A stretch of 64,000 nt of DNA, taken from an uncultured Candidatus Saccharibacteria bacterium (lineage in GTDB: Bacteria > Patescibacteriota > Saccharimonadia > Saccharimonadales > AWTP1-31). Where the stretch lies: contig CALCZR010000060.1 in the NCBI GenBank assembly GCA_937903325.1, forward strand, positions 146,404 to 210,403, read 5' to 3'. Below the pieces are notes generated by a model that worked only from the letters and a program-made list of their open reading frames with translations, was not told the origin of the DNA and did no database searches. A program made the position numbers and the translations under genes. Positions 52,980-64,000 of this stretch are shown piece by piece (the stretch's first letter is position 1; every line of letters starts with the position of its first letter).

Positions 52980-52980
52980 T

Positions 52981-53019
52981 ACAACAGGACCGGAGGGCCA
53001 TCGTGGAACTTATCGCAAG
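52981..53019 (-). repeat. cassette-array repeat R1 (core only, no hairpin)
   Basis: Core GGAGGGCCATCGTGGAACTTATCGCAA at 52992-53018; final base G instead of C. Confidence 0.85.
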
Positions 53020-53083
53020 TAGAATTGGGATCTGGAAGCTATCTCATACAGCGCATACACTAACCTAATTGCAGGTAGCTAAT

Positions 53084-53377
53084 CTAACGGCCAAAGAGTT
53101 GGGGGTTCGTACGATGAGCAGCTGATGCTTCGCCAATTTGTAGTGCCGCCGCTATTACCCCCGCCATTACATTGTCATCTCCAGTATCAAGTCTAGCCTC
53201 TCGAATCGCGCCCACCACTGCACAAGCCACGCTTGTTCTTTCTGATGGTTCATAAGGTCTCTGAGGAGAACTGTAAGAATGTCTGTCAATATCGCTTTGC
53301 ACAGGAGAAGGATTAAGCAATTCCTGCAGTGAAGTGCTCACAAATCTAATTGCTTCTGGATCAAAGTGACTAGGCAT
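53084..53377 (-). CDS. cassette 1: 97-aa hypothetical protein
   Basis: ORF between R1 and R2; its own TATAAT promoter lies 8 nt upstream of the ATG. Confidence 0.5.
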   Translation of the reverse strand: MPSHFDPEAIRFVSTSLQELLNPSPVQSDIDRHSYSSPQRPYEPSERTSVACAVVGAIREARLDTGDDNVMAGVIAAALQIGEASAAHRTNPQLFGR

Positions 53378-53385
53378 AAGGAAGG

Positions 53386-53413
53386 ATTATAGAACACTCC
53401 AGTAGATAAGCAA
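53386..53413 (-). promoter_or_regulatory. promoter of cassette 1 (near-leaderless)
   Basis: Minus strand TTGCTT-N16-TATAAT. The -35 lies in the conserved CTTATGCTTG tail of repeat module R2. Confidence 0.5.
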
Positions 53414-53490
53414 GCATAAGAAAAACTCCCCATCTTTGAGGAGTTTAAACATAACCGGGAATGGAGGGCCATCGTGGACACTATTACTCT
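53412..53490 (-). repeat. cassette-array repeat R2 (box + terminator hairpin)
   Basis: AAGCATAAG, hairpin AAAAACTCCCC-atcttt-GAGGAGTTT (53421-53446), AAACATAACCGGGAA, core 53464-53490 with a diverged 3' half (GGACACTATTACTC). Confidence 0.85.
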
Positions 53491-53503
53491 ATTGGAACTA
53501 AAA

Positions 53504-54127
53504 TTACACCTTAAGTTGTGGTGATTGAAGCAGCTCGTAGGCTCGGATAATCTCGGCATCACGAATAATTTGCGTCTCAGTTGCGGTGACAACTATAGCT
53601 TTTGTCAGCTTGTCACTAAAACCAACATAGACTACCGATTTACCTCTTGATATGACATTCTGAATTGCCGGTAGCAAGTCAGTATCCGAACTTACCAAAA
53701 CCAACTTCTGGGCCTTGTTGTCGCAAGCGTCAACTACCATATCAACGGCGATCCTAACATCCACTCCCTTCTCCTGAAAACGTGAATCTTGTTTGCCACA
53801 AGTCTTACAAATATCACCATCCCTCAACTTGAGCTTTCCAGATTCAATAAATAATAGGTTTTGGGCATTTAAGGTGTTTCGAAGCCTACGCTGTGAATCA
53901 ACCATGACCTGAGATTTCTTAGCAATATCTGCCGGCTCTTTATAACGCCTCAGGCGTGTACCGTAAAATCTTATTTCTACTTCCTTCTCGTCGAGTAAAT
54001 CTTCGATTAGTGAACGAAAAGAAAATGTATGGAGATCTTGCTTCTCTTTTATTTTCTTTGCAGCAATGAGCACATCAGCTGCTTTATACAGGAAGTTCTG
54101 GCCATCAATATATACAATAGTCTTCAT
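53504..54127 (-). CDS. cassette 2: NYN-domain (LabA/PIN-like) putative ribonuclease with CxxC insert
   Basis: IVYIDGQNF, CKTCG, EKGVDVRIAVDM, LVSSDTDLLPA. Confidence 0.7.
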   Translation of the reverse strand: MKTIVYIDGQNFLYKAADVLIAAKKIKEKQDLHTFSFRSLIEDLLDEKEVEIRFYGTRLRRYKEPADIAKKSQVMVDSQRRLRNTLNAQNLLFIESGKLKLRDGDICKTCGKQDSRFQEKGVDVRIAVDMVVDACDNKAQKLVLVSSDTDLLPAIQNVISRGKSVVYVGFSDKLTKAIVVTATETQIIRDAEIIRAYELLQSPQLKV

Positions 54128-54155
54128 CTGGATTAATTATAACTCAAATAAAGAA

Positions 54156-54183
54156 CCTCACCGGACCGGAGTCAAGGTGAGGC
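54156..54183 (-). terminator. terminator-like hairpin between cassettes 3 and 2
   Basis: Minus strand GCCTCACC-N13-GGTGAGGT followed by TCTTTATTT. It takes the place of the usual module hairpin but is about 90 nt from the R3 box. Confidence 0.45.
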
Positions 54184-54268
54184 GCTGTAGTTCTACAGTA
54201 TACTTTTCCGTACACTATGTCAAGACATTTATATAGCTATAAGTCAATCACATCAGTAAAGTTTGTGG

Positions 54269-62058: not shown

Positions 62059-62177
62059 GTCCTTAATTTACAGATATACATGCTCATTGTTTTATAGTAA
62101 TTTTAACAAACTTAGTGATTCTAGGAATAGGGCGTGGTATATTAGCAATGTTTTAACAATTCAAATTAGTATCGTGT

Positions 62178-62243
62178 AATGTCGCATAAGGCAGAATCGA
62201 GATCCCCGAACGGGTCATAAATTCTGCCACTGCGACATTTTTT
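62178..62243 (+). ncRNA. 62-nt extended hairpin plus U-tract (small RNA, attenuator or terminator) in a divergent control region
   Basis: AATGTCGCA/TGCGACATT and GGCAGAAT/ATTCTGCC stacked stems around a 23-nt apex, followed by TTTTTT. Lies 30 nt upstream of the 62273 start. Confidence 0.4.
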
Positions 62244-62272
62244 ATTTCCCTATTCGGTTAACGAGTAAGGAA

Positions 62273-62512
62273 ATGAAAATGAACAGCCAGCAGTTTGAAA
62301 CATCAGATCTAGGTCTAGCAACTGCATTAGTCTCTTCTGGTAACTCCCTATTCTCCGTCGACAAATCCAACCCGCGCAGGGTTATTTTTATCTTCAACCA
62401 AACATCCGAATTATCTGACAAGGTCGACCAATACTGGTCAGGCCAACTTCATGTTGCCGCGAATTCATACATGGATCACGTCAAATATTTGAAAGCGATG
62501 ATCTACTCATGA
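62273..62512 (+). CDS. 79-aa small protein (DUF5659-like by recollection)
   Basis: FETSDLGLATALVSSG ... VIFIF pattern; AAGGAA SD; ATGA overlap with the next ORF. Confidence 0.4.
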   Translation: MKMNSQQFETSDLGLATALVSSGNSLFSVDKSNPRRVIFIFNQTSELSDKVDQYWSGQLHVAANSYMDHVKYLKAMIYS

Positions 62513-62718
62513 ACTACGGAATGACCAAGGGCGATGTTCAGCGCTACTCAGAGATCTACGAGAAGTATTTTAGGAAAAAAATAGATCCCGAAGATGCCGA
62601 GCGGCACCTTGTAATTATGCTGGACACTTTGGACGCCCTAATGAATAACCCTGATCACAATAATGTAAAGGATAATGAATATGAACCCACCAAACAATGG
62701 AAATCTAAATCAAACTAA
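62509..62718 (+). CDS. 69-aa hypothetical protein
   Basis: Translationally coupled (ATGA) to the upstream ORF. Confidence 0.4.
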   Translation: MNYGMTKGDVQRYSEIYEKYFRKKIDPEDAERHLVIMLDTLDALMNNPDHNNVKDNEYEPTKQWKSKSN

Positions 62719-63076
62719 CTTAGTAGATGCTTTTGAAGCAATACTATTGAGATCGCCAGCTATAGGCAAGGTTTACCATGTCTCTGAGATTTCAGAAATA
62801 GCCTATATAAAAGTAGATTTTCCAGAATTTGGCTTTTACATTAACAGCATCACAATCAGAGAAAACCCTAGAAACCCTGGGATGTTATGGCTCCAGATGC
62901 CCAAGTTCAAGACTTATGGCAGCAAATGGACAGCTCCACTAGAGTTTAGTAATGACAGCCCACTTTACAAGCGAGTGGTAGAAGCAGCTCAATTAGCGTA
63001 CTTTAGAAGCTTTTACTCCGAGGAAGGTAGCGGCAGAGAGGAGTTCGAACAATTTCTTGAGGAAAACTTTCCATAG
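62675..63076 (+). CDS. 133-aa hypothetical protein (SpoVG-like topology is only a guess)
   Basis: IKVDFPEFGFYINSITIRENP ... LWLQMPKFK is loosely SpoVG-like. Overlaps the upstream ORF by 38-44 nt. Confidence 0.4.
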   Translation: MNMNPPNNGNLNQTNLVDAFEAILLRSPAIGKVYHVSEISEIAYIKVDFPEFGFYINSITIRENPRNPGMLWLQMPKFKTYGSKWTAPLEFSNDSPLYKRVVEAAQLAYFRSFYSEEGSGREEFEQFLEENFP

Positions 63077-63086
63077 ATTTCTTTTT

Positions 63087-63153
63087 AGATCTTATTTAGG
63101 TAACTTATTAAATACCTTATTAAGTTACCTAAGTAAATACCTAGATAAAATCT
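63087..63153. repeat. nested inverted repeats / AGGTAA-TTACCT iteron cluster upstream of the recombinase operon
   Basis: Perfect 12-bp IR TTAGGTAACTTA (63096-63107) / TAAGTTACCTAA (63121-63132). Outer 16-bp IR AGATCTTATTTAGGTA (63087) / TACCTAGATAAAATCT (63138), 14/16 match. TAAATACCT occurs twice; TACCT units recur at about 12-13 bp spacing. Confidence 0.7.
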
Positions 63154-63185
63154 AAATAACTCATTAAGTAATCAAATAAGGAACT

Positions 63186-63335
63186 ATGATGGTCCATGAA
63201 ATTTTAACAACATTTGGAAAACTACTACTAAACAACCCTAGCGAGCTTTTAGGATTCGAAGTAAAGAAACTGACCGAGAGCGAAGGCTTCGACAGCTATG
63301 AGCTGAAGGTTATAATCAAGGAATGGAAACAATGA
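63186..63335 (+). CDS. 49-aa ORF translationally coupled to the serine recombinase (below ORF-track cutoff)
   Basis: AAGGAA-N3-ATG; MMVHEILTTFGKLLLNNPSELLGFEVKKLTESEGFDSYELKVIIKEWKQ. Its TGA overlaps the recombinase ATG (ATGA). Confidence 0.45.
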   Translation: MMVHEILTTFGKLLLNNPSELLGFEVKKLTESEGFDSYELKVIIKEWKQ

Positions 63336-64000
63336 GGGAACAACCTGGCCTGAGATATATTGCTTATGTTCGTAAGTCCGAGGAGCGCGAAGAAAGACAG
63401 GAATTGTCGCATGCTGCGCAAGTAAGAACAATAAAGCAGCAATTTGCCCACTTGAATGTTGTTAAGTGGATGGAGCCCGAAAGTAAGAGCGCTTTTAAGC
63501 CTGGTCGAAAGCTATTCAATGAAATGATCAAGCTGATTCAGGATAACAAAGCTGATGCGATTGTAGCGTATCACCCCAACAGAATTTCTCGCAACGAGAT
63601 CGACGCAGCCACAATTACCTACTTCGTCAGAACTGGCATAGTCAAAGATATCAAGTTTTGTGCTTACTCTTTTGAGAACAGCCCAGAGGGCATAATGATG
63701 CTTCAAATGGTCATGAGCCAATCGCAATATGAGAGCTCGAAGCAAGGACGAGAAGTTAAACGAGGCATGGAGCAAAAAGCTATTAGCGGTGAGAGACCAG
63801 GTGTTGTGCCATTAGGTTATATAAAATCACCAATTCTAGATAGCCGTGGGGAAATCGTACTTTCGTCAAAACATAATACAGTGATCACCAAGACAGAAAG
63901 AGATCCAGCTCGATACTTTCAAGTTGAGCAAATGTGGAAGATGCTCCTATCGGGGCAATATAACGCGGCGCAGATACGTAAGATCGCTAATGAAAAGTTC
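63332..64000 (+). CDS. large serine recombinase (resolvase/invertase N-domain + recombinase domain), 3' end beyond window
   Basis: Not in the track (no stop within the window). My translation: MREQPGLRYIAYVRKSEEREERQELSHAAQ ... AIVAYHPNRISRN ... MSQSQYESSKQGREVKRGMEQKAISGERPGVVPLGY. Open for 223 codons to the window end. Confidence 0.8.
   Translation, partial: MREQPGLRYIAYVRKSEEREERQELSHAAQVRTIKQQFAHLNVVKWMEPESKSAFKPGRKLFNEMIKLIQDNKADAIVAYHPNRISRNEIDAATITYFVRTGIVKDIKFCAYSFENSPEGIMMLQMVMSQSQYESSKQGREVKRGMEQKAISGERPGVVPLGYIKSPILDSRGEIVLSSKHNTVITKTERDPARYFQVEQMWKMLLSGQYNAAQIRKIANEKF

Follow-up and report, generated by a model that had tools for sequence, protein, structure and literature searches.

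The right-hand part of the window (the whole 64,000-nucleotide stretch of a Saccharibacteria contig analyzed here) probably holds a composite genomic island of foreign origin, inserted at the 3' end of a tRNA-Lys(CTT) gene in a chromosome of the Saccharibacteria type (Patescibacteria). The island extends over 11,976 bp, from position 52991 to a 10-nt core at 64967-64976. It is made up of five mini-cassettes (52991-56496) and a unit of 8,470 bp (56497 to about 64966) that carries the gene for a large serine recombinase. The island is apparently a member of a widespread family that has so far gone undescribed, and its stacked cassettes appear to be a variation on known systems of cassette capture.

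Limits of the island and its stack of cassettes

The window is 100% identical to NODE_5 of ENA ERZ650269, a 162-kb metagenome contig reached by exact-protein look-ups, and many shorter contigs from other samples match it as well. Look-ups with the 79-aa, 69-aa, EamA, and 263-aa proteins gave matching contigs; those with the 133-aa ORF and the Ltp ORF gave no matches. Locus L016 extends the sequence 8.7 kb to the right of the window, for a total of 72.7 kb examined. The contigs of the window organism (L008-L021 and L165-L173, the equivalents of window 42032-66151) are 99.9-100% identical over as much as 21 kb. They come from more than ten sequencing runs belonging to several studies, which indicates what would be a nearly clonal population across samples.

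Both limits of the island are marked by the end of a tRNA gene. On the right, an intact tRNA-Lys(CTT) gene lies outside the window on the minus strand, at window-equivalent 64967-65043 (12459-12535 of L016). Its 3' end, as read on the plus strand (i.e., as the reverse complement), is the 10-nt core TGGAGGGCCA at 64967-64976, taken from L016. On the left, the core, here CGGAGGGCCA, is followed by the arm TCGTGGAACTTATCGCAAG in site 1 (52991-53019, plus strand), which lies 12 nt from the start codon (52979) of an EamA gene. An earlier reading of the DNA from its sequence alone (the sequence-only reading) had taken 52980-64000 to be an accessory island. Its left limit was within 11 nt of the junction; its right limit was only the edge of the window, short of the true end at 64967-64976. 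The arrangement is that of islands integrated at tRNA genes: the tRNA gene is intact, an integrase gene adjoins its 3' end, and a segment of that end (6-12 nt in the relatives considered below) is directly repeated at the distal junction.

The recombinase gene begins at 63332 on the plus strand and, as had been supposed, continues past 64000. Its first 223 codons lie in the window and its stop codon is at window-equivalent 65008 (12500 of L016), so that the recombinase gene and the 3' end of the convergent tRNA gene overlap by 42 nt. Directly beyond the tRNA gene are DHFR and FolC, then an iron permease and a histidine kinase, and the GC fraction on that side is 0.459. With its stop inside tRNA-Lys(CTT) and chromosomal genes beyond, the recombinase gene closes the island, and the element does not continue past it. 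The sequence-only reading had entertained the reverse, that the recombinase might be part of an element located beyond 64000, with 52980-63080 as a separate accretion. All that spoke for this was the truncation of the gene by the window, and three ORFs to the left of the recombinase (encoding DUF5659, a 69-aa protein, and a 133-aa protein) are its conserved partners in related elements. The probability of such a rightward element is now negligible. What does survive of the proposal is accretion at a hotspot, in the form of six stacked insertion units, though the unit containing the recombinase reaches left as far as 56497.

In composition, too, the island stands apart, as the impression of AT-rich intergenic regions had suggested. 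Its GC fraction is 0.427, against 0.473 for the chromosome (where 12-kb windows have a standard deviation of 0.007 and a minimum of 0.460), and its tetranucleotide distance of 0.0169 exceeds the highest chromosomal value, 0.0079. The atypical composition, the recombinase, and the att-type boundaries together argue that the island was acquired horizontally, in agreement with the sequence-only reading.

Within these limits the end of the tRNA recurs. Six copies of a repeat, at 52991, 53462, 54285, 54736, 55276, and 56497, each consist of the tRNA-end core and then a conserved 19-nt arm (TCGTGGAACTTATCGCAAC or a close variant), and most have a hairpin and a run of T on their 5' side. The core at these six distal positions is TGGAGGGCCA, in the orientation of the tRNA junction, except in site 1. 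The repeats divide the left part of the island into cassettes of 471, 823, 451, 540, and 1,221 bp, four with a single ORF and the fifth with two. Cassette 1 (52991-53461) contains a 97-aa ORF (53084-53377, minus strand) with no confident family. Site 2 (53462-53490, plus strand) has an intact core, a terminator hairpin in its left arm, and a decayed right arm, TCGTGGACACTATTACTCT, that lacks GCAAC. After it, cassette 2 encodes an NYN-domain nuclease (53504-54127, minus strand) that matches the PADLOC candidate defence protein HEC-09 (E = 7e-17). Site 3 (54285-54313, plus strand) reads TGGAGGGCCATCGTGGAACTTATCGCAAC, and site 4 (54736-54764, plus strand) is identical to it over all 29 nt; between them lies cassette 3, with a 120-aa ORF (54304-54666, minus strand). 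Neither this ORF nor the 140-aa ORF of cassette 4 (54770-55192, minus strand) could be assigned to a family. Site 5 (55276-55304, plus strand) reads TGGAGGGCCATCGTAGAGCTTATCGCAAC and, like site 4, has a hairpin and T-run in its left arm. The two ORFs of cassette 5 (55360-56457) run in opposite directions, one for a 263-aa membrane protein (55360-56151, minus strand) and the other of 70 aa (56245-56457, plus strand). Site 6 (56497-56525, plus strand), TGGAGGGCCACCGTGGAGCTAATCGCAAC, is the distal end of the recombinase unit.

The recombinase family and cassette arrays in metagenomes

The recombinase is an intact protein of 558 aa, complete in L016. PF00239 is found in the part encoded within the window, and PF00239, PF07508, and, faintly, PF13408 are found in the full product (i.e., the Resolvase, Recombinase, and Zn-ribbon domains). 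The catalytic context YxRxS is present, and Y12, R14, K15, S16, R84, and R87 are invariant in an alignment (A1) of 14 sequences. A profile search matched SprA (E = 2.6e-9) and A118 Int (E = 7.7e-8); a single-sequence search of PDB with the recombinase gave no match. Scores against the NCBIfam models of CcrA, CcrB, and CcrC were 43-63 bits, below their cut-offs of 700-900. Judged by its domains and catalytic residues, the protein qualifies as a large serine recombinase of the integrase type, and it is predicted to act on attP and attB.

An alignment of the recombinase with its homologues was used to retrieve 80 loci from species-representative genomes, nearly all of them from Saccharibacteria or other Patescibacteria, with a best identity of 59%. 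Relatives of the recombinase number 228 in species-representative genomes, as compared to 9 among 2.9 million IMG/VR contigs. Three more loci were added to the 80 and all 83 scanned for tRNA genes. In 64, the 3' end of the recombinase gene overlaps a convergent tRNA gene by 14-57 nt, and in 5 more there is a tRNA gene within 400 nt. Among the remaining 14, seven have less than 100 nt of sequence past the recombinase match and an eighth has only 376 nt. The overlap of recombinase and tRNA is evidently family-wide, while the target varies, encompassing tRNAs for Lys, Asn, Gln, Ser, Asp, Trp, Tyr, and Val. Two cases, L038 and L069, are instructive. Their tRNA genes lie 1 kb and 3.3 kb further on, and the recombinase reads into a core followed by sequence not from a tRNA (in L069 it resembles the conserved arm); a further unit has been inserted between recombinase and tRNA.

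The distal ends of the related elements carry the same site as the window. Seven relatives that target tRNA-Lys have exactly one instance of TGGAGG-N18-GCAAC on the same strand, 8.3-11.5 kb from the tRNA, and the distal site of L022 agrees at every position with the 29-nt consensus derived from the metagenome arrays described below. In eight delimited elements, the core and arm also end the units that bear the recombinase. Where the tRNA target is different, the arm is kept and the core altered, to GTCGTAGACGACGTTAGAAC with tRNA-Ser, TAGTGGACGATGTTGGAAC with tRNA-Asp, and CCGTAGACAGTATTCGAAC with tRNA-Asn. The GAAC that closes the element-derived arm is always 29 nt from the tRNA end, 5 bp further out than in the tRNA arm, where the T-loop sequence TCGAAC ends at 24 nt. 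The offset is reminiscent of how attP and attB half-sites differ in serine integrases such as A118 Int. By the distal site and the arm, the recombinase unit of the window is set at 56497 to about 64966, within the size class of its relatives.

Several relatives show peculiarities at the attachment site. In L007 (8300-8430; 62% identical), the recombinase gene breaks off near residue 305, and the tRNA-Lys core comes directly after (...GGCAGGATGCT|TGGAGGGCCA). On its right side the deletion stops precisely at the core, and this may reflect a site-specific event at a pseudo-site. The recombinase of L006 is split into ORFs of 305 aa and 252 aa. In L176 (11590-11650) and past the recombinase in L060, L070, L075, and L099, there is a tRNA-like 3' fragment with no ARAGORN call, followed in L060 by a complete tRNA-Asn. 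Such fragments suggest that, in the attachment sites of some clades, identity to the tRNA extends over a far longer segment.

Stacks like that of the window are found in metagenomes as well. When JGI metagenomes were scanned for the site pattern, 63 stretches were returned; a relaxed match to the consensus (at most 7 mismatches, with flanks long enough for extraction) gives about 137 distinct sites in them, all co-oriented (opposite strand, 0). The arrays have up to 10 sites and usually end at a convergent tRNA-Lys gene (CTT or TTT), with the sites on its 3' side. Cassettes between sites have a median length of 698 nt (range approximately 0.25-3 kb), and the tRNA strand carries the longest ORF in 87 of 100. 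Their 96 distinct proteins fall into 83 clusters, and the Pfam families represented are GNAT acetyltransferases, histidine phosphatases, YoeB, HepT, PIN, NUDIX, and PadR, along with assorted enzymes. An extended -10 sequence, TGnTAnnnT, occurs 30-50 nt past the core in 59 of 101 cassette 5' regions (18.7 +/- 4.1 when shuffled), and a perfect hairpin with a T-rich tail in 30 of 101 (2.0 when shuffled). Signals for promoter and terminator suggest that most cassettes would be self-contained units of expression. By the same token, the terminator of the cassette next to the tRNA gene would terminate the tRNA transcript as well.

Comparison of arrays indicates that cassettes move. L158 and L164 have homologous cassettes in a different order, and the homology stops at the sites; L109 and L164 have two cassettes in common at 99.7% identity, with divergence starting at a site. 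The left arms at the tRNA fall in the same classes as those of internal sites. The most direct evidence comes from L150 and L119, whose flanks agree at 99% identity. Precisely where the tRNA ends, L119 has an additional 1,001 bp bordered on either side by TGGAGGGCCA, and this inserted unit begins with the conserved arm. The arrays are mosaics, therefore, and there is one cassette insertion polymorphism exactly at the core.

One might still view the repeats as ordinary intergenic sequences, such as terminators, REP-like elements, or small RNAs, multiplied by local duplication and matching the tRNA by chance; a terminator hairpin is found in several copies, after all, and the common core is only 10 nt. 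However, it is the 29 nt beside the hairpin that are conserved, not the hairpin, and no Rfam family was found at the repeats. Nor would ordinary repeats be expected to yield some 137 sites all in one orientation on the 3' side of tRNA-Lys genes, reordered cassettes whose homology stops at the sites, a 1-kb insertion exactly at the core, and proteins so largely unrelated to one another. The explanation is largely refuted and must be considered very improbable.

Other features of the arrays may bear traces of past recombination. In L106, an internal site and the tRNA-Lys junction have one and the same left arm of 70 nt before them (168-238 and 1476-1546), as if a cassette had been doubled in tandem. 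Extra copies of tRNA-Lys(CTT) are found within the arrays of L138 (6957-7033 and 10776-10852) and L139 (1377-1452). The acceptor stems of some of these extra copies start like the arm of a site (TGGAGGGCCATCTGGG...), and they may be hybrid or duplicated genes produced by recombination. Three adjacent cassettes in L109 (4700-6370) have in common a module of about 180-200 nt containing a fragment similar to a tRNA 3' end, TGGCAGAAGCTAGTTGGGACTTGATCC, possibly the remnant of an att site for another tRNA.

The window itself contains a second example, with a single cassette, at 38969-40132. After a tRNA-Lys(TTT) gene (38969-39045, plus strand) come a terminator and an ORF for an M23 peptidase (39163-40011, plus strand), and a site on the reverse strand (40104-40132), TGGAGGAGCAAGATACAAACTATTGCAAC, closes the unit; it matches the distal site of L036 at 26 of 29 positions. 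GC skew changes sign in the same kilobase. The tRNA gene is adjoined by one for a ComEC-type competence protein (37376-38851, minus strand), whose presence makes natural transformation a conceivable route of entry for cassettes that lack genes for transfer.

Gene content of the recombinase unit

Families were assigned to the ORFs of the window by scans of Pfam, PHROGs, and NCBIfam, and the genes named in the sequence-only reading were all found in place. Moving inward from site 6, the unit encodes a 372-aa protein of the LPO_1073/Vpar_1526 family (56557-57675) overlapped by a 69-aa ORF (the pair at 56557-57850, minus strand); a Y-family DNA polymerase with IMS and IMS_C domains (57901-59136) and an upstream 142-aa ORF (the two at 57901-59548, minus strand); an SOS-response-associated peptidase (SRAP; 59414-60118, plus strand); and a CAP-domain protein (60196-60894) with an Ltp-type lipoprotein (60916-61422), both within 60196-61422 on the minus strand. 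All of these are considered cargo. They are followed by a small HTH protein of 147 aa (61615-62058, minus strand) and then by three coupled ORFs (62273-63076, plus strand), encoding DUF5659 (79 aa), the second 69-aa protein, and the 133-aa protein, which form the conserved core of the family. According to protein clustering, the module beside the recombinase in the eight delimited elements includes the 69-aa ORF in all eight and DUF5659 and an ORF of the 133-aa type in seven each; DUF5659 was found in 30 related loci. The pair of polymerase and SRAP is cargo also in the related element L037, and the cargo of other relatives comprises restriction-modification genes (C5 methylases, an NgoFVII-type endonuclease, and a Z1-domain protein). 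Cargo, then, is exchangeable around a conserved core of the three small ORFs and the recombinase.

Between the 133-aa ORF and a 49-aa ORF, and thus inside the element, lies an intergenic cluster of nested, AT-rich inverted repeats (63074-63154; TTATTTAGGTAACTTATTAA / TTATTAAGTTACCTAAGTAA). The 49-aa ORF (63186-63335, plus strand) overlaps the start of the recombinase gene and may be a candidate for a small accessory factor. Because the extended 72.7 kb contains no second copy of the cluster, it was ruled out as an att site, contrary to the sequence-only reading, which had proposed a search for direct repeats of 63087-63153 at the far end. From its position 5' of the 49-aa ORF and the recombinase, it is probably a regulatory region, operator, or promoter. 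Relatives have shorter and different palindromes at the same position.

Might the unit be a phage satellite or the remnant of a prophage, moved by a helper phage through a terminase-like protein? Its 8.5 kb would be consistent with this, as elements of the family are 8-11 kb in size and have no transfer genes. The 147-aa HTH protein matches the small terminase subunit in PHROGs (E = 2.6e-14), the Ltp protein matches a PHROG family for superinfection exclusion (E = 1.8e-58), and a few relatives of the recombinase lie in IMG/VR contigs. Against this, the resemblance of the HTH protein to terminase amounts to 18.5 bits, where the Pfam cut-off is 27, and only three or four related elements have homologues of the gene. 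Pfam and PHROGs gave no hits among the island ORFs to capsid, portal, tail, large terminase, replication, primase, repressor, or lysis proteins, and the nine relatives in IMG/VR compare with 228 in genomes. The 29-nt site itself has no match in IMG/VR. We consider it improbable that the unit is a satellite or remnant of this sort. In any case, the proposal has to do only with the route of transfer between cells and is compatible with the mechanism of integration considered below, which it leaves unaffected. The label "phage-like", used in the sequence-only reading, therefore applies weakly: Ltp, the terminase-like HTH protein, and the recombinase are the only hits of a phage type, and structural, replication, and lysis genes did not turn up.

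A possible mechanism and its relation to known systems

According to the model we favor, the recombinase unit would be an integrative element with its att site within the final codons of the recombinase gene. The stack would be built by site-specific insertion at the tRNA core, time after time, each new unit recreating a usable target and pushing the older units outward. A cassette that lacks a recombinase would enter in trans, or else excision by way of a nearer or farther distal site might deposit cassettes or capture them. Of the chromosomal target, only the half contributed by the tRNA is conserved, and the left arm varies. A variable left arm fits with tRNA 3' flanks that are not conserved between hosts, and it would let new junctions serve in turn as targets. 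The model predicts a circle with the junction ...TTTCTGAAAAC-TGGAGGGCCA-CCGTGGAGCTAATCGCAAC and a vacated site reading ...ACATTACCGGGAT-TGGAGGGCCA-GGAGGGACTCGAACC. It also has a consequence for the protein. Read directly in the recombinase frame, site 6 would encode WRATVELIATKF, and the arm in general encodes W-x-x-x-V-(D/E)-x-(I/V)-x-T. Integration would then swap the C-terminal tail of the recombinase, WRATVELIATKF... giving way to the tRNA-encoded WRARRDSNPRHSA, and the form of the protein made from the excised element is predicted to end WRATVELIATKFTSAYQH. We infer that strand exchange takes place within the core and that one family of recombinase carries out both reactions, the movement of elements and the movement of cassettes.

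A number of observations weigh against this account. Among the contigs of the window species, neither an empty site nor an excised circle turned up. These contigs derive from more than ten samples and differ hardly at all (99.9-100% identity), and each has the whole block. The present-day mobility of the copy in the window is, for this reason, only putative. The same finding goes halfway toward the view that the block is a settled part of the chromosome: all same-species contigs carry it in place, but these are 100% identical strains, and the composition of the block is abnormal and its recombinase intact, not decayed. The sole variant within the species, the Logan contig L012, lacks cassette 3, with a junction that falls within the 32 nt common to sites 3 and 4. 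That junction is a k=31 assembly path across a 32-nt repeat, so an artefact or homologous recombination could have produced it. Comparison of orthologous sites across species failed, as the chromosomal flanks (EamA, MraY-like, DHFR, and FolC) have no homologues among approximately 140 related loci. The related elements in species-representative genomes have, within the flanks available, a single distal site and no array, and conversely, most of the metagenome arrays have no recombinase within the sequence covered. The enzyme is thus tied to the cassettes by a common architecture of their sites and not by co-occurrence. The left arms were searched for a mirror image of the right arm, and none was convincing. 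Finally, canonical large serine integrases join only attP and attB, and hybrid or like sites require a directionality factor. Under canonical rules, the growth and shuffling of arrays would call for relaxed recognition of the left arm or for the alternative excision.

Perhaps, then, a different recombinase (tyrosine, integron-like, or Xer-like), encoded elsewhere, builds the stack, and the serine element merely shares the tRNA hotspot. The scarcity of recombinases near the metagenome arrays would be explained, and the 3' ends of tRNA genes are the classic targets of tyrosine integrases (reviewed in PMC12884075). But the core and arm of the cassettes are found also at the distal end of recombinase units, in all eight delimited elements, and the arm is conserved even as the core changes when a clade of the recombinase switches tRNA. 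Pfam scans found no Phage_integrase domain in any ORF of the island. Sites do not fold in the manner of attC; stretches of 54 nt have a mean minimum free energy of -3.3 kcal/mol, with z of about 0.2 relative to shuffled sequences, on both strands. A second recombinase is thus fairly improbable. A likeness to Xer/dif sites was considered separately and dropped, as the arms would be about 27 nt apart rather than 6.

If the serine recombinase does build the stack, the system works most like the composite islands of staphylococcal cassette chromosomes (SCC), and it also resembles integrons and CALINs, while belonging to neither. In SCCmec and other SCC elements, a large serine recombinase (CcrAB or CcrC) inserts at the 3' end of a housekeeping gene, rlmH (orfX), and preserves the gene. 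Tandem units are stacked there with short direct repeats of the target between them, some units lack a recombinase, and the cargo is accessory. The differences are in the target (tRNA-Lys(CTT) instead of rlmH), in the overlap of the recombinase ORF with the target, such that its C-terminus would change on integration, in the units, mostly single genes of about 0.25-3 kb (median 0.7 kb) in arrays of at least 10, and in the host, Patescibacteria. The enzyme is also far from the Ccr equivalog cut-offs (63 bits against 900).

With integrons the system has in common co-oriented cassettes, mostly of a single ORF, a conserved recombination site between them, entry at one fixed end, and a mosaic and diverse content rich in toxins and GNAT acetyltransferases. 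In the metagenome arrays, these cassettes are evidently mobile, and many of the arrays are like CALINs in having no recombinase nearby. On the other hand, the island has neither IntI nor any tyrosine recombinase, and its candidate enzyme is a serine recombinase riding on a mobile unit. Furthermore, attC sites are folded palindromes and the sites here are not; the anchor is the end of a tRNA gene rather than attI; and expression in integrons is driven from Pc, whereas most cassettes here appear to have their own terminator and extended -10 promoter.

Islands of the Islander/TIGER type, and ICESt1/ICESt3 with their CIMEs, are likewise found on the 3' side of tRNA genes. They have an integrase gene beside the tRNA and a partial copy of the tRNA end at the distal junction, and they form tandem arrays that include integrase-less units. 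Their integrases are tyrosine recombinases, however, and their blocks of identity are usually longer; here a large serine recombinase goes with a core of 6-12 nt and a conserved 19-nt arm. Lastly, the integrases of SPbeta (SprA), A118/LI (Int), phiC31, Bxb1, and TP901-1 show the same order of Resolvase, Recombinase, Zn ribbon, and coiled coil, and similarly short cores with longer flanking arms. The present family differs from these phage integrases in being very divergent, in targeting tRNA genes systematically, in having its att site inside its own ORF, and in residing on cargo islands of 8-11 kb that are not phages. In the literature searched (coverage was incomplete), we found no account of serine recombinases that target tRNA genes, or of such arrays, in Patescibacteria.

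It is quite possible, and we put it forward tentatively, that Saccharibacteria and other Patescibacteria possess a functional analogue of the integron based on serine recombinases. The 3' end of a tRNA gene would be the fixed point of insertion, where single-gene cassettes are stacked and shuffled, each with its own terminator and promoter and a double-stranded recombination site of 29 nt. The enzymes would be a family of large serine recombinases, carried by small cargo islands and given a new C-terminal tail upon integration.

From the standpoint of annotation, six repeats, a recombinase, and a tRNA gene beyond the edge of the window become one system. Its signature, a tRNA-end core with the arm GTrGAC-N-GAAC, could serve to map accessory genes in these genomes, including those for defence, toxin-antitoxin systems, and damage tolerance. 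A family of large serine integrases with short sites and with targets at tRNA 3' ends that are predictable, conserved, and safe for the genome is also of the type sought for genome engineering. The mechanisms of gene flux in Patescibacteria are poorly known. If the model is correct, these ultra-small, host-dependent bacteria would have a second integron-like route to gene capture, one that makes use of a different recombinase.

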